A stretch of DNA of 50,672 nt, from assembly GCA_038324015.1 (NCBI GenBank), contig JBBQHN010000002.1, positions 1 to 50,672 of the forward strand, written 5' to 3'. Positions within the stretch are counted from its first letter, which is position 1. Each line of letters opens with the position of its first letter. Source of the stretch: Candidatus Limnocylindria bacterium (lineage in GTDB: Bacteria > Chloroflexota > Limnocylindria > P2-11E). Positions 30,001 to 36,000 of the stretch are shown one piece after another. Made by a program: the position numbers.

Positions 30001-33000
30001 GCGGACGATGCGGCGCACGAACTCAGTCGTAAAGCCGTAGACCAGATGTGACGCGAGCGCGTATGCGTGCGTCGAGGGCGGCGTCTGCTCGGGCTTCTTC
30101 CCGAGGCGCTGCGCCGGGACGAACATGTTGTCGGCGGTCCACCAGGCAACGACGCCCATCCCGAGCCCGCTGAACATCCGCGCGGGCGGGAAGATCTCAG
30201 CCACAGCGCCGTAGACGGCGCCGATGGAGGCGCCGGTCGCGTAATGGACGGCCTCGCCGGCCAGCGGCTTGAGCTCGTCGGAGAGCTCGGTGTCGAGGAC
30301 CGTCTTCGAGATGCGCTCGGCGACCTTGATGGTCGCCGGCTCCGCCGTTGGACTTTCCTTGATGGCGTGGGCCTTCCGCTTCGGCGCGGCGCGCTTCTCG
30401 AGGTCGTTCCACCATTGCTGGAAGAGCTCCATCGTGTAGGCCCCGCAGGCACCGCCGATAGCGCCGGCGACGGCGCCCTTGATCGGGTTCATCGGGGCTC
30501 TCCCTGCAGGAATACTGCCGAAGCCCACACTGGGCGCCGTGGGGACGCTTTTCCTCGTTGCGACGCCCATTGGCAACCTCGAGGACATCTCGCCGCGCGC
30601 GCTCAAGATCCTCCAGGAGGTCCACATGGTGGCCTGCGAGGACACCCGGCACACCCAGATCCTCCTGCGCCGGTACGAGATCCGGGCCAAGCACCTCACC
30701 TCATACACCGAGTTCAACCACAAGCGGCAGGTCGGCGTCCTGGTCGGTCAGCTCGATCGCGGCTGGGACGTCGCGCTCGTGTCGGACGCGGGCACGCCGG
30801 CCCTCTCCGATCCGGGCGAGGCGCTCGTCGTCGCGGCCATCGCGGCCGGCCACACCGTTACGCCGATCCCGGGCCCGAATGCCGCGATCTCGGCGCTCGT
30901 CGCCTCCGGCCTGCCGACACGCGAGTTCACGTTCCTCGGGTTCCTCTCCAAGAAGACCGGCAAACGCAAGAGCGCGCTCGTGGCGCTGCTCGCGGAAGGC
31001 CGAACCATCGTGGTCTACGAGAGTCCGTACCGGACCGGCGACCTCCTGGAGGATCTCGCCGCGATCGCGCCGGGCGCGCGTGTCGTCGTCGCCCGTGAGC
31101 TTTCCAAGATCCACGAGGAGTTCGTGCGCGGGACGGCCACGGAGCTGGCCGCTCGGTATGCTTCGGAACGTCCGAAGGGGGAGGTCACCGTGGTGATCGC
31201 GCCGGCGGTCGGTGGCGCGGGGGAGGCGGATGCCGAGAGCGAGTAGCAAGGTCGTCGACGTGTTCGTCGAGAACCCGCGCGGCGCCCGCGCGACGTACGA
31301 GCGTGCCCGAGGTCTCGCTGGCCTGACGGTGACCCAGGCGGTCGAGCGGCTCGTCGCGGCGAGCGTTGGACTTACGGACGCCGTCCTCGAGCGGCCGTAC
31401 GTCTGGGAGGAGTATGACGACGACGGGCTGCGGTTCGCGCTGCTGACCGCCCACCACCAGCTGCGCGAGGCCCACGCGACGGTCGCTGCCGCGCGGCTCG
31501 ACGCTGGGAAGCCGTTCACCGCGGCACAGCGGATCCTCGCGCAGGTCCATGAGGCCTACCGTGACCTGACTGGCGCGCTCGCGGGCGTGTCCCTGGCCGA
31601 GCTCGACGTGCAACCGCCGGACGAGCAGTGGCCGCTGCGCGAGGTACTGAGGCACATCCTGAACGCGGAGAAGGGGTTCCTGGCGGCGATCACGATCGCG
31701 CTGGGCCTGGTCCGAGCGCGTCAACCCTCCGAGCCACTGCCGTCCGAGGACGCGTTCAAGGCGATCCGCGGCGCGCCCGAGGACCCGGGCGGAACACGGG
31801 CCGACGCGCTCAACGCGCTGTTCCGCAGTCACGCCGCGATCCAGGGTGCGCTTGGCTCGGTCGACGATGCCGAGCTCGACACGCCGTCGTTCTTCTGGGA
31901 GGACAAGGGCTACTCGATCCGCTTCCGGATGCACCGCTTTGAAGAGCATCTGCGCCAGCACACGATCCAGGTGGACAAGACGCTCATCGCGATCGGGCAT
32001 CCGCCGACCGAGGCCGAGCGGCTGGTCCGCAACCTGTACAACGCGCTCGCGGGGGTGGAGTCGGTCGCGGCAGGCTCCGCTGCCGGAAACGACGTCCTGG
32101 ACCGGTGCGCAGCGTCGATCGATGTGATCACGGCCGAGGTCGCGAGGATCGCCGCGACCTAGTTGGTCGCGGCGAGCTCCAAGATCGTCTGCGTCGCGAC
32201 CCGGCCGGCCATCGCGAGGTGCTCCGCGGTCACGGTGGCGAGGGTGTCGCCCGTGGTGTGGAACGGCCCGAACTCGGTCCAGCCGACCATCGCGGCAGGC
32301 ACGCCGCGCCGGGTGTACGAGAGGTGGTCGCTGCCGCCGACGGCCGGGACGTAGCCGAACGCGTAGCCGAGCCGGTCCGCTGCGCTCGCGAGCCGGGCGT
32401 GCAGCGCGAAGCTCTCATCGGAGGCGGCGAGCGTGTCGCCGCAACAGCCGGACACGTCCAGGTTCACGAACGCGAGGATGTTCGACGGGCGGAGCGGGGT
32501 GGTCAGCGAGTGGTTCGCGAAGTACTCGGACCCAACAAGGCCCTCCTCCTCACCGGCGAACGTGGTGAAGATCACGGAGTTCTTCAGCATCGACCGGTTG
32601 GCGGCGAGCACCCGGGCGATCTCGAGCGTCACCGCCGGGCCGGAGCCGTTGTCGTTCGCGGCAGGGAACACCGTGCCATCGGGGTCCGTCCCGATCCCGT
32701 CGAGGTGCCCGCCGACGAGCACGAACTTGTCGTTGCGCTGCGGGTCGCCGCCCCGGAGGATGCCGACGACGTTCTGGCCGACGATGTCGTGGATCGGCCC
32801 GAGCGGGACGGTGAAACGGACCCGCGTGGCGGTGTCGAACGAGATGGGCTGAGGGACCTCCTGCCGTAGGCTGGGCCGCGTCTGCGCGCGCCGCAGGCGG
32901 TCGATGAGCGACTGGTTGAGGTCGACGATGTTCTTGCCCGATGCGGCGATCAGCTCGTTGGCGACGCCGGCGGAGATCGTCAGCACCGGGATCGTCTCGG

Positions 33001-36000
33001 CCTCGAATGCCGCGACGTACGACGGCTTGATGAGCTCGCCGAACGAGACCTGGATGACGCCGATCGCCCCCTCCCGGCGCGCGATATCGATGCGGTCCTG
33101 GTTCGCGACGCTCGGGCCCGCGATCATCACGATGTTCCCCTGCGAATGGGTCCCTTCATAGTCGGAGTAGCCGGGGATCTTGTTGCCGGCGCCCACGTAG
33201 ACAATGTTCCCCTCGACCGTACCGCCGCCGCGCCGGCCACCGATGCTCTCGTTGAAGTCGATGCGCGGGCGGTACGCCTTCGTGTCGGCGCCGACACGCT
33301 GGAATGTCGGCATCGCGGTGAGCCCCACGTCCGCCATCTTGAAGCTCTGGTAATAGGTGCCGTCGTCGCCCGCGGGCTCGAGGCCGAGTGAGCGGAACCG
33401 GTCGGCCACGTAGGCTGCCGCCTCCTTGTAGCCGGGTGACGCCGTGTAGCGCCCGCCGCGCGCGGGATCGGCGATGTACGCGAGGTTCGCGTGGGCCTGC
33501 CCGCCGTCGAACTGCCTCGCGACGCTCGTGAGTGCGGCCGCGGGGCCGACGAGCGGCGTGACGATGCGGAACACCAGCACGACCGCGACCACGGCCGTCG
33601 CGACGCGCCAGTTGAGCAGCTTGCCGAGCGCGACCGGCGCGCGCTCGAAGAAGATCCGCAAGCCGTGGCCCGCGAGGTTGAAGGCGAGCACGCCGCTCGC
33701 GAACGCCGCCGCTGGGACGAGCGCGATCCATGGCGCGCGGAAGACCTCGAACCGTCCTTGTGCCAGGATCGCGCCCCACTCGGGCGACGCGAAGAAGAAG
33801 GCGCGACCGGACCCGCGAAGGTCGTCGATCGGGACGCTCGTGCCGCCGCCGACCACGTACCCGAGAAAGCCGAGCTCGCCAAGGATGAGCAGGATGGCGC
33901 TCGCCTCGAGCGCCGACGTGATCGCGAGGGTCGGCAGGAGGTTCGGGACCGCATGACGGGCGAATGTCGCGAATTCAGAAAGACCCTCGGCGCGCGCCGC
34001 CTCGAGGAAAGGGCGGCCGCGCAGGTCAACGAGCGCGGCGCGGACCGCCCGCCCGACGCCCCACCAGCCCGTGATCGTGAGCGCCGCGGCGAAGGCCTGG
34101 AGGCCCGACCGGATGTCGAAGGCGAAGATCCAAAGGACCGCGAACAGGAGGGTGGGGAACGCGGCGAACGCGTCGATCAGCGCCGAGATGACGCGGTCGA
34201 TCCACCTGCCGGCGAACCATCCGGCGACGGCACCAAGCGTCACGCCGATGACCAGCCGCGCGCCCAGAACGATGAACGCCAGCGTGAAGGTCGCCTGCGC
34301 GCCGAACATCACGGTCGCCCACAGGTCCCGGCCCTGACGGTCGGAGCCGAGGACGTACCCGAACTGACCAGGCTCGAATGGCGCGGGGATCGAGCGCGTC
34401 CCGAGCTGGACGAACGTGTGCTCCTTGAGCGGATCGGCGGAGCTGAAGAACGGCGCGCCGAATCCGACGATGAGCCACCCGAGGATGAGTGCGACGCCGA
34501 CGATGAGCTGCCAGTTGAGCGCGCGCCTCACGACGGTGCGCCCGTCGCGCGCTGAGCGAAGTGGTCGGCGAGCGCGTCCAGCCCGAACCGGACCACCGCG
34601 ATCGTGGCGGCGAGTGCGCCGAGGAGCGTGCCCGCGGTCGCCGCGTCGAAGCGGCGCACGGCTTGGAGGAGCGCGAAGCCGAGGCCCGGCCAGGAGAAGA
34701 ACACCTCGACGACGGGCAGCGTTGAGAGCGCGATCGACAGCCCCGTGGCGACCGCGCCGATGATCGGCACCGCCGCATTGGGCAGCGCGTGCCGGGCGAA
34801 GATGAGCGATTCCACCAGGCCTTTCGCCCGCGCCGTCCGGATGTAATCGAGATGGAGGATCTCGTCGGTCGCGACGTAGGCGAAGCTCGCGATCTGCGCG
34901 AAGGGGCGGAGCGCGAGGACGACCACCGGCAGGATGAGGTGGTTATCGATGCCGTAGCCGAAGGTCGGCCAGAGCCGGATGCCGGCGCGCGCGGTGAGCT
35001 CGGCGCCGAACAGGATCAGCAGGATCGCGACGAGGAATGACGGGAGCGAGACCGTCAGCGTCGTGAACGTCAGCAACGTGGCTCGCCAGCGTGCGCTCCG
35101 TGTCGCGGCCGCGAGGACACCGATCAGTATCCCGACCGCCGTCGCGAGGCCGATCGCGAGGAGGACCAGGATCATGCTCTTGGAGTAGGCATCGAGCAGC
35201 AGGTCGCCCATCGCCCGGCGCTGCCCGCCGAGGATCGAAGTCGACGTCGCTTCGCCGAGCGACCCGGATGCCAGGCTCGTGAAGTAGTCCTGCGTCCCTT
35301 CCCACGCCTGTCCCGCGATGGTCGGCAGGTCCGTGCGCTCGATGCGCGTGCGGGCCGACACCATCGCCACTTGGGAGAGCACGACGATGAGGACGAAGGT
35401 CAGGATCACGAGCAGCAGACGGGTCAGCACGGCCACCGACACGCGCGTGGCCGTTCCGCGTTCCACCACTATCTCCGACCTAGAATACCGAGGTGGCGGC
35501 TCCAAAGTTCTATGTCACGACGGCGATCGCCTACGTCAACGATCGCCCCGGCCTGCACCATGCCTACGAGTTCGCCGGCGCCGACGCCCTCGCTCGCTTT
35601 CACCGCCAGCGCGGCCGCGATGTCTTCTTCCTGACCGGGACCGACGAGAACGCGACGCGCAACGAGCGCGCCGCGAAGGAACAGGGGATCGAGACCCGCG
35701 CCTTGGTCGACAAGCACGCCGCCGAATTCAAGCAGATGGCCGACACCTGGAATATCTCGTATGACCGCTTTATCCGCACGACCGATCCAGACCACGTCAG
35801 AGGCGTGCAGGAGTTCGTTCGCCGCTGGATCGCGAACGATGATGTGTACCTCGCCACCTACGAGGGCCTCTACTGCATCAAGTGCGAGGCCTTCTACGAG
35901 GAGGGTGATCTCGTGGACGGGTGCTGCCCGGTCCATCCCGACGACCCTTCGAACATCCAGCGCTTGAAGGAAGAGAACTACTTCTTCCGGCTGTCGAAGT

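Follow-up and report, generated by a model that had tools for sequence, protein, structure and literature searches.

The locus considered here raises the question of what a single polypeptide might do in which a subunit of an ABC importer continues, through one more hydrophobic segment, into an aminopeptidase, and whether such a polypeptide is real. The window, i.e., the whole analyzed stretch of 50,672 nucleotides from a Candidatus Limnocylindria bacterium, harbors it on the minus strand in a short operon:

32159..34531 (−): fusion gene, 790 aa, encoding an OppC-type permease, TM7, and a predicted extracytoplasmic PA/M28 aminopeptidase (ORF, Pfam, homologues, AF2)
34528..35469 (−): OppB-like partner permease, ca. 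313 aa (Pfam BPD_transp_1, 90 bits)

The Fusion Gene and Its Neighborhood

The fusion gene begins with GTG and ends with the stop codon at 32159–32161. The junction, read directly from the sequence, displays the overlap of this GTG with the stop codon of the OppB-like gene (GTGA), an arrangement of translational coupling. A GTG, either at 35469 or at 35466, is the probable start of the OppB-like gene: the longest ORF (34528..35505, minus strand) would run into metG, and the protein was aligned with homologues of 307–317 aa; it also carries an EAA loop, ‘YIRTARAKGL’. GC3 values of 0.93 for the fusion ORF and 0.90 for its OppB-like partner are typical of real genes in this window of 69% GC. As described in the earlier note, the operon comprises only the OppB-like and fusion genes, with neither an SBP nor an ATPase gene, and is flanked by a convergent DinB_2 gene and the divergent metG (Pfam). 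The unit is conserved beside housekeeping genes (metG, tatD), not in a nutrient-uptake island.

A gene of this kind could, in principle, arise from an assembly error or a frameshift joining a permease gene to a neighboring peptidase gene. No point in favor of such an artefact was found, and it is effectively refuted by the homologues: more than 120 clusters drawn from independent assemblies (NCBI, JGI, ENA, Logan), each of 784–811 aa and sharing 60–90% identity, display the same architecture. Likewise, the same junction recurs in 84 related loci, in which the upstream neighbor of the fusion is always the OppB-like gene, the codon bias is uniform across the fusion gene, and the linker and TM7 are conserved. 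The fusion is, hence, real, and both of its halves are complete (Pfam; alignments with DppC and 1AMP). Of the three Pfam domains expected in the earlier note, BPD_transp_1 and Peptidase_M28 scored above the cut-off and PA below it.

Permease Core, Linker, and Topology

The permease half and its connection to the peptidase are composed of the following elements:

33671..34531 (−): complete 6-TM core of the OppC/DppC type, residues 1–287 (alignment to 8Z1V)
33932..34006 (−): EAA/coupling-helix loop ‘LEAARAEGLSEFATFARHAVPNLLP’, residues 176–200, the ATPase contact site
33605..33670 (−): basic cytoplasmic linker, residues 288–309 (hydropathy and charge count)
33548..33604 (−): TM7 ‘VATAVVAVVLVFRIVTPLV’, residues 310–328 (hydropathy, AF2), the predicted tether returning the chain outside

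The N-terminal half aligns to residues 33–292 of the 300 residues of E. coli DppC (8Z1V), so the 6-TM core, ending near residue 293, is complete; it also aligns to DppC/OppC of M. tuberculosis. BPD_transp_1 matches residues 96–226 (67 bits vs. the cut-off of 26.4), and the core carries the ‘GSDRQGRDLW’ block together with an insertion of 14–18 residues in the outer TM5–TM6 loop (about residues 229–250). The NCBIfam matches were OppC/NikC/DppC-like, all of them below the equivalog cut-offs. The N-terminal TM1/outer-loop modules OppC_N and BPD_transp_1_N, present in the canonical OppB/C of the window, were undetected by Pfam in the fused pair, given which its docking of SBP may be altered. The EAA loop is strongly conserved: 32 clade members share L176, E177, A178, G183, L184, R192, H193, P196, and N197 without exception, and in the fusions at 28–38% identity G183, P196, and N197 are still invariant, with E177, A179, and H193 conserved at 90% or more. 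Within the clade, the permease core and the M28 core are equally conserved (mean identity of 74% and 71%, respectively).

The linker contains four Arg/Lys residues (R292, R297, K303, and R309) and is 77% identical in the clade, R292 being invariant and R297 and R309 conserved at 90% or more. TM7 has a mean Kyte–Doolittle value of 2.44 over 19 residues and coincides with the helix placed by AF2 at residues 308–327 (pLDDT of the whole fusion model 78.5); at 46% identity in the clade, its hydrophobic character alone is conserved. The suggestion that the extra helix brings the peptidase outside agrees with the homology-based topology and with the positive charges flanking the helix on its cytoplasmic side. 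The free paralogues of the ectodomain possess a signal peptide and lipobox, and its nearest folds are secreted or type II ectoenzymes. Residues 329–790 are, thus, predicted to reside outside.

The Ectodomain

Three features describe the C-terminal part of the protein:

32162..33547 (−): PA-domain M28 aminopeptidase module, residues 329–790 (Pfam, 1AMP alignment, Foldseek)
32951–33217 (−): PA Pfam match, residues 439–527 (18 bits, below the cut-off of 23.9)
32189–32773 (−): M28 core, residues 587–781 (Pfam Peptidase_M28, 115 bits vs. the cut-off of 21.3)

The PA assignment is a putative one based on the fold similarity to 2EK8, BSAP, and PaAP and on matches in close homologues. The same proteins, 2EK8 (E 2e-24, TM 0.76 normalized to target), PaAP, and BSAP, were the best Foldseek matches of the ectodomain, which was modeled with pLDDT of ca. 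90. The M28 site is intact, as claimed earlier: all seven catalytic positions (H609, D611, D627, E661, E662, D692, and H736) are present, and in the alignment with the Aeromonas/Vibrio aminopeptidase 1AMP the catalytic Glu and every metal ligand are matched. Conservation of the ligands in the clade of the window is complete or reaches at least 90%, and 109 of the 120 clusters there display HDDEEDH and the other 11 HDDEEDQ. This pattern supports an intact M28 site under purifying selection in this Limnocylindria clade.

Distribution in Chloroflexota and Loss of the Active Site

The fusion is not a one-off but one branch of a large, unstudied family; no characterization of an OppC–M28 fusion was found in the literature. 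It is Chloroflexota-wide: of the 150 best representative clusters, at least 83 carry it, in the form OppC-M28, OppB-OppC-M28, or a version preceded by a MacB-type NBD. Scoring a median of ca. 178 bits to each other vs. 60–87 bits to canonical OppC, the fused TMDs constitute a dedicated, separate OppC lineage. In a side branch confined to four loci, a LolD/MacB-type NBD is fused to OppB-OppC-pseudoM28 and follows MacB_PCD/FtsX and HlyD-adaptor genes.

The M28 metal ligands are degenerate in 65 of the 66 fused representatives, the Limnocylindria clade of the window being the exception. Therefore, the family-wide conserved job of the ectodomain is not catalysis; the trim-and-import function proposed in the earlier note holds, at best, for this clade. 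Since catalysis is dispensable elsewhere, what the family conserves may instead be a part in capturing substrates or in docking. The degenerate members retain the whole domain (ca. 460 aa) and TM7, and an intact M28 is often encoded beside them by giants with HDDEEDH in their first M28 domain (loci L030, L032, L037, L048, L067, L075, L082, and L083). The 61–63% Limnocylindria clade displays the reverse pattern, with an intact fused domain and a free lipoprotein paralogue that reads HDDEEDQ. Together, these patterns suggest an enzyme/pseudoenzyme pairing of fused and free M28 proteins.

Candidate ATPase and SBP Partners

The inventory given earlier for the window, three SBP_bac_5 genes, two permease pairs, and one OppD/F pair, stands. 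The potential partners are as follows:

10743..12892 (+): OppD/OppF-type ATPase pair of the canonical Opp operon (6766–12892), both genes with Pfam ABC_tran and oligo_HPY
5108..6685 (+): family-5 SBP upstream of the canonical Opp operon (Pfam SBP_bac_5, 167 bits)
14011..15552 (+): third family-5 SBP, with no adjacent permease (Pfam SBP_bac_5, 203 bits)

The ATPase pair, the only Opp-class NBDs in the window, is a candidate trans partner of the fused permeases, as are the two SBPs. In 21 Limnocylindria loci, neither an ATPase nor an SBP was found within 10 kb of the unit, so a complete transporter in this clade is putative; an SBP gene alongside the unit is also absent in most loci. In four distant relatives (L033, L036, L073, and L074), an OppD-type ATPase (NCBIfam OppD, 3e-100; ABC_tran and oligo_HPY) is encoded directly downstream of the fusion, and in about 10 loci a complete NBD-NBD-SBP-OppB-OppC operon adjoins it. 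The use of Opp-type ATPases by the fused permeases is, judging from these gene neighborhoods, plausible.

Possible Functions of the Fusion

The favored explanation, which we give about an even chance, is an importer subunit of the Opp class that bears a tethered, active aminopeptidase for trimming N-termini and uses ATPases in trans. The fusion would represent the OppC-type subunit of a Chloroflexota-wide Opp-class (type I) ABC lineage that gained TM7 and PA/M28, forming a membrane heterodimer with the translationally coupled OppB-like subunit. Since the EAA loops are conserved, it would be driven by OppD/F-type ATPases encoded elsewhere in the genome; the single pair in the window is a candidate. 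Given the completeness and conservation of the M28 site in the Limnocylindria clade, the ectodomain would be an active membrane-tethered aminopeptidase, predicted to be held beside the outer face of the permease. There it would take hold of peptides by their free N-termini and trim them; the products, shortened peptides and/or single residues set free, would be imported locally. Single amino acids, which M28 aminopeptidases release, are atypical Opp substrates, and this counts against trim-and-import.

It is also conceivable, though rather unlikely, that the tethered domain binds rather than cleaves, so that the purpose of the fusion lies elsewhere than in catalysis. The ectodomain would then capture peptide N-termini and pass them to the permease as a surrogate OppA or, alternatively, dock a free active M28 peptidase or SBP; catalysis in the clade of the window would be either an ancestral trait that has persisted or an addition. 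The persistence of the domain and TM7 in the 65 degenerate representatives, the scarcity of SBP genes beside the unit, and an ectodomain of roughly SBP-like size, tethered in the manner of the GlnPQ and OpuA SBDs, are consistent with such a role. So are the intact giants adjoining degenerate fusions, the reverse pairing in the 61–63% clade, and the presence of the transferrin receptor, a catalytically dead receptor of the M28 fold, among the structural neighbors. However, all seven catalytic positions are conserved in the clade of the window across 60–90% identity, implying selection for catalysis there; several relatives adjoin a full Opp operon whose own SBP may still serve, and ligand binding by the ectodomain is itself putative.

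Mere co-localization has a low probability: here, the fusion would only anchor the aminopeptidase on the surface of a (presumably) single-membrane cell, and the transporter itself would operate as any importer of the OppABCDF type does, with a lipoprotein SBP and uncoupled from the enzyme. Related free M28 modules are membrane- or lipid-anchored, so surface retention is evidently selected, and two family-5 SBPs of the window lack their own permeases. Still, a signal anchor or lipobox, which the free paralogues already possess, suffices for anchoring, and the fusion is ancient, tied to a dedicated TMD lineage, and outlasts catalysis, which argues for a permease-linked function. Quite improbable is a permease pair that does not import at all and instead acts as an ATP-driven mechanotransducer or scaffold controlling an extracytoplasmic (pseudo)enzyme, e.g., in envelope or surface-protein processing, by a logic analogous to FtsEX or MacB-type systems. 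The MacB-linked side branch, the Limnocylindria operon devoid of SBP and ATPase, and its location next to metG and tatD rather than in an uptake island would fit this possibility, but the MacB link concerns only those few loci, the dedicated ATPases of other relatives are OppD-type, and the TMDs, with their canonical EAA loops, have the type I importer fold of BPD_transp_1, which no mechanotransducer is known to use.

Comparison with Known Systems

The 6-TM core aligns over the full length with OppC/DppC (E. coli DppBCDF 8Z1V and OppBCDF 8Z21; M. tuberculosis DppABCD 8WD9 and OppABCD 8J5Q), sharing the ‘G(S/T)DxxGRD’ outer-loop block, the EAA coupling loop, and the translationally coupled OppB-type partner. 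Unlike these subunits, the fusion has ca. 500 extra C-terminal residues (TM7 and the ectodomain), falls into a lineage of its own, scores below all NCBIfam equivalog cut-offs, has no detected OppC_N, and lies in an operon with no SBP or ATPase gene.

TMD-tethered substrate-binding domains of the GlnPQ and OpuA type are common in single-membrane bacteria. Like the fusion, these systems carry an extracytoplasmic accessory domain covalently tethered to a type I importer TMD; theirs is of the periplasmic-binding-protein fold, whereas that of the fusion is of a (pseudo-)peptidase fold attached C-terminally via an added TM helix. Peptidase-containing ABC transporters (PCATs; PMC6959990) also bear a peptidase domain on the ABC transporter polypeptide. 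They are, however, type IV fold exporters whose cytoplasmic C39 cysteine peptidase cuts leader peptides before export, in contrast to an importer-fold TMD with a predicted external zinc aminopeptidase.

The ectodomain matches the PA–M28 aminopeptidases (Aneurinibacillus AM-1 2EK8, B. subtilis BSAP/YwaD 6HC6, P. aeruginosa PaAP 8AC7; core, Aeromonas/Vibrio proteolytica AAP 1AMP) over ca. 460 residues (TM 0.71–0.76 normalized to target), with the catalytic Glu, the H-x-D Asp, and all five metal ligands in place. In contrast to these soluble, secreted enzymes, the fused one, ca. 20% identical in sequence, is joined covalently to a subunit of a transporter. The similarity is lower (TM 0.45–0.52 normalized to target) to the M28B type II membrane proteins glutamate carboxypeptidase II and transferrin receptor, which are eukaryotic, possess an extra dimerization domain, and are not attached to a transporter but share a membrane-anchored PA and M28 ectodomain following a single TM helix. 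The transferrin receptor demonstrates how the M28 fold can turn into a non-catalytic receptor, paralleling the degenerate fused relatives.

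Fusion Gene and Its Surroundings in the Window

The 790-aa fusion is encoded on the minus strand by an ORF with a GTG start (32159..34531), whose GC3 of 0.93, like that of the upstream ORF (0.90; 34528..35505), is at the level of real genes in this genome; the window has a GC content of ~69%. The junction DNA reads '...GCA CCG TCG TGA' at the 3′ end of the upstream OppB-like gene and 'GTG AGG CGC GCG CTC AAC TGG' (M R R A L N W) at the 5′ end of the fusion gene, confirming the GTGA overlap of stop and start described in the earlier note. For the OppB-like gene, comparison with homologues of 307–317 aa makes the start proposed there, GTG at 35469 (or 35466), the most likely one. 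According to Pfam, the OppB-like protein carries BPD_transp_1, the convergent downstream gene encodes a DinB_2 protein, and the divergent upstream gene encodes MetG. The 3′ ends of the fusion gene and the DinB_2 gene (31212–32162, plus strand) overlap by 4 nt (32159–32162), which leaves no space for a terminator between them.

The initial count of transporter genes in the window was matched: three family-5 solute-binding proteins (SBPs), one complete Opp operon, and an orphan fused pair with neither SBP nor ATPase genes in its operon.

Transporter genes of the window
5108–6685, family-5 SBP
6766–8643, family-5 SBP
14011–15552, family-5 SBP
6766–12892, complete Opp operon, holding the only OppD/F pair of the window (10743–12892)
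32159–34531, minus strand, fusion of OppC/DppC-type permease and M28 ectodomain
34528–35469, minus strand, OppB-like permease

The OppD/F pair is 19 kb away from the fused pair, and two of the family-5 SBPs, located outside the fused operon, have no permease of their own. Two further ABC ATPases (NBDs) in the window belong to an exporter half-transporter and to a SufC-like ATPase beside suf genes.

Several other genes of this region deserve mention in their own right. A 361-aa ORF (12896–13981, minus strand), flanked by the genes for the Opp ATPases and for the third family-5 SBP, has a strong coding signal (GC3 0.90) and gave no match in the Pfam search. An 831-aa protein (24860–27355, plus strand) combines NTP_transferase, hexapeptide-repeat and phosphoglucomutase/phosphomannomutase domains in a single chain, which is kept in a close relative (826 aa in contig L003). 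In the same contig, 89%-related to the window, the SufB homologue is an 829-aa protein with an intein (Intein_splicing and LAGLIDADG_3; L003 21927–22373); the SufB of the window (20975–22387, 470 aa) is intein-free.

Conservation of the Fusion in Limnocylindria

A word-indexed protein search returned 165 protein matches at E ≤ 1e-10. The best 120 clusters, coming from NCBI, JGI, ENA and Logan assemblies, are 60–100% identical to the fusion, and nearly all are 784–811 aa long with both Pfam domains. The fusion is therefore genuine, as the earlier note had supposed: an assembly-made join or a frameshift artefact is ruled out by more than 120 independent full-length homologue clusters and by the same junction at 84 loci. 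When 32 members of the window clade (Limnocylindria homologues with 60–90% identity) were aligned, conservation was at least 90%, up to full invariance, in the EAA loop, at the arginines of the linker and at the catalytic residues. The intact state of the seven M28 catalytic positions, HDDEEDH, was found in 109 of the 120 clusters, the other 11 carrying H736Q.

In four long contigs and in 17 loci from GTDB Limnocylindria, the OppB-like gene always precedes the fusion gene, and the unit is divergent from metG-tatD-DUF4349 in all four contexts with annotated upstream genes. No SBP or ABC ATPase is encoded within 10 kb of the unit in the 21 Limnocylindria loci. Among relatives at 61–63% identity, the third gene in most loci encodes a free lipoprotein PA/M28 paralogue, 46–47% identical to the window ectodomain, which overlaps the fusion stop codon (L001 12376–13827, L002 12379–13818, and most of L005–L020). 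This paralogue usually reads HDDEEDQ, with Gln replacing the last zinc-ligand His, while the fused copy is intact; its gene has been lost from the window and its 80–89% relatives.

Permease Half, Linker and Predicted Topology

BPD_transp_1 (PF00528) is recognized at residues 96–226 of the fusion with 67.2 bits, against a cut-off of 26.4. Residues 10–293 align to residues 33–292 of the 300 of E. coli DppC (8Z1V, E 1.5e-22), and M. tuberculosis DppC and OppC align as well; since the alignment covers nearly the whole of DppC, the six-TM OppC/DppC core is complete and terminates at the normal end point of these proteins. The EAA coupling loop LEAARAEGLSEFATFARHAVPNLLP lies between TM4 and TM5 (EAA---G-----I-LP-like), and its E177, A178, G183, P196 and N197 are invariant in the clade. 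The fusion passes the BPD_transp_1 and M28 family thresholds and falls below every specific orthologue-group threshold: NCBIfam describes the fused permease as OppC/NikC/DppC-like and its partner as OppB/SapB/NikB-like, both far under every equivalog cut-off, so that the fusion joins no named group (OppC, DppC, NikC, GsiD, SapC or others), the best match being Opp2C with 143 versus 300 bits.

The core is followed by a 22-residue linker with four Arg/Lys and by a 19-residue segment (310–328) with a Kyte–Doolittle value of 2.44, for which AlphaFold2 returned a TM7 helix at 308–327, followed by a C-terminal domain of 460 residues with a pLDDT of ~90. Both termini of OppC/DppC proteins are cytoplasmic, which matches the solved complexes aligned here. 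With a cytoplasmic OppC C-terminus, one extra helix makes the number of TM segments odd, and the ectodomain is thus predicted to be extracytoplasmic. The charge distribution conforms to the same orientation, with four K/R in the linker versus one in the first 20 residues past TM7. Outside placement also agrees with the free ectodomain paralogues encoded just downstream in related genomes, which start with a signal peptide and lipobox ('...LLFVAC G...', '...FGGC T...'), and with the nearest solved folds found by Foldseek, which are secreted enzymes or type II ectoenzymes. Within the clade, the TMD is on average 74% identical to that of the window and the M28 core 71%, compared with 77% for the linker and 46% for TM7; constraint on both halves is similar, and TM7 behaves like a simple tether.

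PA/M28 Ectodomain

Of the three domains named in the earlier note, BPD_transp_1 and Peptidase_M28 (PF04389; 114.8 bits versus a cut-off of 21.3, residues 587–781) exceed their gathering scores, and PA (PF02225; residues 439–527) remains under it, with 18.0 versus 23.9 bits and an E-value of 0.0033. A precomputed PF02225 match exists in several close homologues, and the top Foldseek matches of the ectodomain are PA-bearing M28 enzymes aligned over 466–503 columns, i.e., 2EK8 (E 2e-24, TM 0.76 normalized to target), PaAP of P. aeruginosa and BSAP of B. subtilis, followed by NAALADase-L, the transferrin receptor and GCPII. On the strength of the predicted model, this structural match settles the presence of the PA insert despite the sub-threshold Pfam score.

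Alignment to 1AMP, the Aeromonas/Vibrio proteolytica aminopeptidase, bore out the view that all zinc and catalytic positions are present (H609, D627, E662, D692, H736 and E661, along with D611). The five metal ligands H97/D117/E152/D179/H256 and the catalytic E151 of this reference enzyme (AAP) mark an M28 co-catalytic zinc aminopeptidase; D611 is the Asp of the H-x-D motif. A vicinal Cys-Cys in 'DVSGCCGD' (C696–C697; window 32444–32449), four residues past the D692 ligand, is invariant in 32/32 clade members and absent from distant fusions; it could form a vicinal disulfide or provide an additional metal or redox site close to the active center.

Wider Family and Its Architectures

An exhaustive search of 1.84 billion representatives at E ≤ 1e-30 yielded 476 clusters (50% identity), the best 150 of which were classified with the components of the window and a Pfam check. 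These 150 include ~40 OppC-M28 proteins, ~40 single-chain OppB-OppC-M28 proteins of ~1,170–1,330 aa, three NBD-OppB-OppC-M28 proteins of 1,443–1,530 aa, a few with an extra M28 or DUF6624 domain, and 16 OppC proteins with a C-terminal extension too divergent for alignment. The rest are M28-only proteins, comprising free enzymes of ~490 aa and giants of 1,600–2,180 aa (DUF418, PA, M28, Peptidase_MA_2 and a second M28).

Judging by its named members and by a search of GTDB with one genome for each species, the family spans Chloroflexota; it occurs in Limnocylindria, Chloroflexia, Anaerolineae/Anaerolineales, Promineifilaceae, Ardenticatenales and Caldilineae. All of the Chloroflexota members located come from MAGs, some of which hold two or three copies. 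Four contigs bear other bin labels, namely Acidiferrales (L012), Patescibacteria (L030), Zixiibacteriota (L058) and Methylomirabilota (P0073); since their identity, gene order and synteny match those of Chloroflexota loci, they are probably mis-binned.

When the TMD core of the window is compared with the OppC modules of every fused form from outside its clade, scores are 146–232 bits (median ~178); with OppC of canonical size, including that of the window itself and those beside fused genes in other genomes, they are only 60–87 bits. No OppC of canonical length was found among the best 150 of the 476 representative clusters. The fused permeases thus represent a dedicated, separate OppC lineage, and this common lineage, along with the absence of canonical-length OppC from the best 150, favors one ancient fusion over independent events. 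A recent independent fusion in Limnocylindria was set aside for the same reason, the single old fusion being preferred and not proven. In a rough NJ tree of the ectodomains, the window clade and its free paralogues group with intact M28 enzymes, and the degenerate fused domains group together; this tree, which carries no support values and is vulnerable to long-branch attraction, is given little weight.

Among the M28 domains that could be aligned in the 150 representatives, P0127 is the only fused form outside the window clade to read HDDEEDH; the other 65 are degenerate, with QDDEGR., YDDGE(E/S)., HDDGYG and SDHGQD as recurrent patterns. In M28-only proteins, 37 of 75 domains are intact. The GTDB loci show HDDEEDH in the fused domains of Limnocylindria, HDDEEDQ in Chloroflexia, and degenerate sites in Anaerolineae, Caldilineae and Ardenticatenales. 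Judged by their ligand sets, most fused ectodomains are pseudo-peptidases, and the window would hold the catalytically competent version of a domain that most of the family has retained for a different reason.

Accompanying Genes outside Limnocylindria

In about ten loci, a complete NBD-NBD-SBP-OppB-OppC operon adjoins the fused unit. Nine of them, from Anaerolineales and related loci, feature a conserved gene of ~571 aa on the opposite strand between this operon and the OppB-OppC-pseudoM28 gene (L073 6836–8551, minus strand; L036 6776–8491, minus strand; also L047, L052, L053, L056, L074, L077 and L081), for which the Pfam search gave no match. A single ATPase gene of the OppD type (ABC_tran and oligo_HPY; NCBIfam OppD, 3e-100) lies directly downstream of the fused gene in L033, L036, L073 and L074.

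At least nine loci encode a giant multi-M28 protein downstream, the first M28 domain of which is intact. These membrane proteins of 1,600–2,180 aa (e.g., P0136, P0151, P0205 and P0211) carry DUF418, PA, the intact M28, Peptidase_MA_2 and a second M28, usually HDDQEDH. They appear to be uncharacterized and are situated ~2–9 kb downstream of the fusion in L030, L032, L037, L048, L060, L067, L075, L082 and L083, where the M28 domains of the partner permeases themselves are degenerate. Tandem duplicates or triplicates of the fused gene occur at some loci; in a marine biofilm Chloroflexota contig (L027 948–10109), one OppB gene is followed by three tandem OppC-pseudoM28 genes, all three reading HDDGED. 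at the catalytic positions.

The three NBD-fused forms and the L024 locus follow MacB_PCD/FtsX and (L024 excepted) HlyD-adaptor-like genes.

Fused genes beside MacB-type systems
L085 3–7032, LolD/MacB-type NBD fused before OppB-OppC-pseudoM28, after MacB_PCD/FtsX permease and/or HlyD-adaptor-like genes
L086 4294–12593, same arrangement
Contig of P0159, same arrangement
L024 917–3147, FtsX-type permease directly upstream of the OppB-OppC-M28 gene

The NBD-OppB-OppC-M28 chains were ruled out as Rosetta-stone proof of an Opp ATPase, since their NBD is of the LolD/MacB/DevA type, not of the Opp type, and is part of the adjacent MacB_PCD/FtsX and HlyD-adaptor system. The separate downstream OppD-type gene is better evidence for Opp ATPases than these fusions, which form a side branch with an unexplained link of a MacB-type tripartite (type VII ABC) system to importer-fold TMDs.

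Possible Roles of the Ectodomain

The OppB-like/OppC-like pair would constitute the membrane part of an Opp-class importer, which in its complete form comprises an SBP, two TMDs and two NBDs; its energy would presumably come from ATPases of the OppD/F type, encoded in trans. The ectodomain, if exposed outside and active, would trim peptide N-termini beside the permease, so that the products are captured and not lost by diffusion; the gain would be greatest for a cell obliged to keep its exoenzymes on the surface. For the window clade, we consider this trim-and-import role to have about an even chance of being correct.

The main caveat is the degeneracy of most fused ligand sets: most of the family can do without catalysis, and this suggests that the conserved role is one of binding or docking. 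As the primary role of the ectodomain in the window clade, reception or docking is considered less likely than trimming. The ectodomain could serve as a built-in receptor for peptide N-termini, given that M28 sites recognize the free alpha-amino group, or as a platform on which a partner peptidase or an SBP docks. A more far-reaching proposal, which we deem unlikely, assumes a dedicated class of Chloroflexota Opp-type importers operating without a classical SBP, with the TM7-tethered (pseudo)aminopeptidase as the receptor for peptide N-termini and the still catalytic Limnocylindria clade coupling N-terminal trimming to uptake. Mere co-localization and a non-transport mechanotransduction role jointly take up most of the probability left over by trimming and by reception or docking.

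Limnocylindria and Anaerolineae are abundant, mostly uncultured bacteria of soil, freshwater and sludge, thought to live on detrital protein. A hydrolyze-and-capture device halting the diffusion of products would bear on their competition for organic nitrogen. Should the domain feed the permease, it would represent a new coupling of extracellular proteolysis, or of N-terminus recognition, to uptake, and the family would offer a natural series of an enzyme turning into a receptor. What makes the family notable is that, across it, an enzyme carried by a transporter has become a pseudoenzyme, a transition directly open to testing.

Comparison with Known Systems

The impression of the earlier note that the architecture is uncharacterized was upheld by full-text literature searches, in which no description of a permease–M28 fusion was found; a paper on proteolysis in Thermoflexus mentions only a lipoprotein M28F and a separate OppABCDF. 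Public annotation names one half only, as 'M28 family peptidase [Candidatus Limnocylindria / Chloroflexota]', 'peptide/nickel transport system permease' or 'ABC transporter permease', so each current label hides the other half of the protein.

In the accepted view, type I ABC importers are supplied with substrate by a binding protein that has the periplasmic-binding-protein fold and may be free, fused or anchored to lipid. In contrast, a whole lineage of Opp-type permeases carries a tethered domain of the M28 peptidase fold, intact in the window clade and, to judge from its ligands, catalytically dead in most others. In its working, the fusion can be likened to an OppC subunit joined to an aminopeptidase of the BSAP/PaAP type. 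Conceptually closest to it are the SBD-fused type I importers GlnPQ and OpuA, and the PCAT exporters are more distant, their C39 peptidase being cytoplasmic. The SBP-less reading would resemble the enzyme-to-receptor transition of the transferrin receptor, here in a bacterial transporter.
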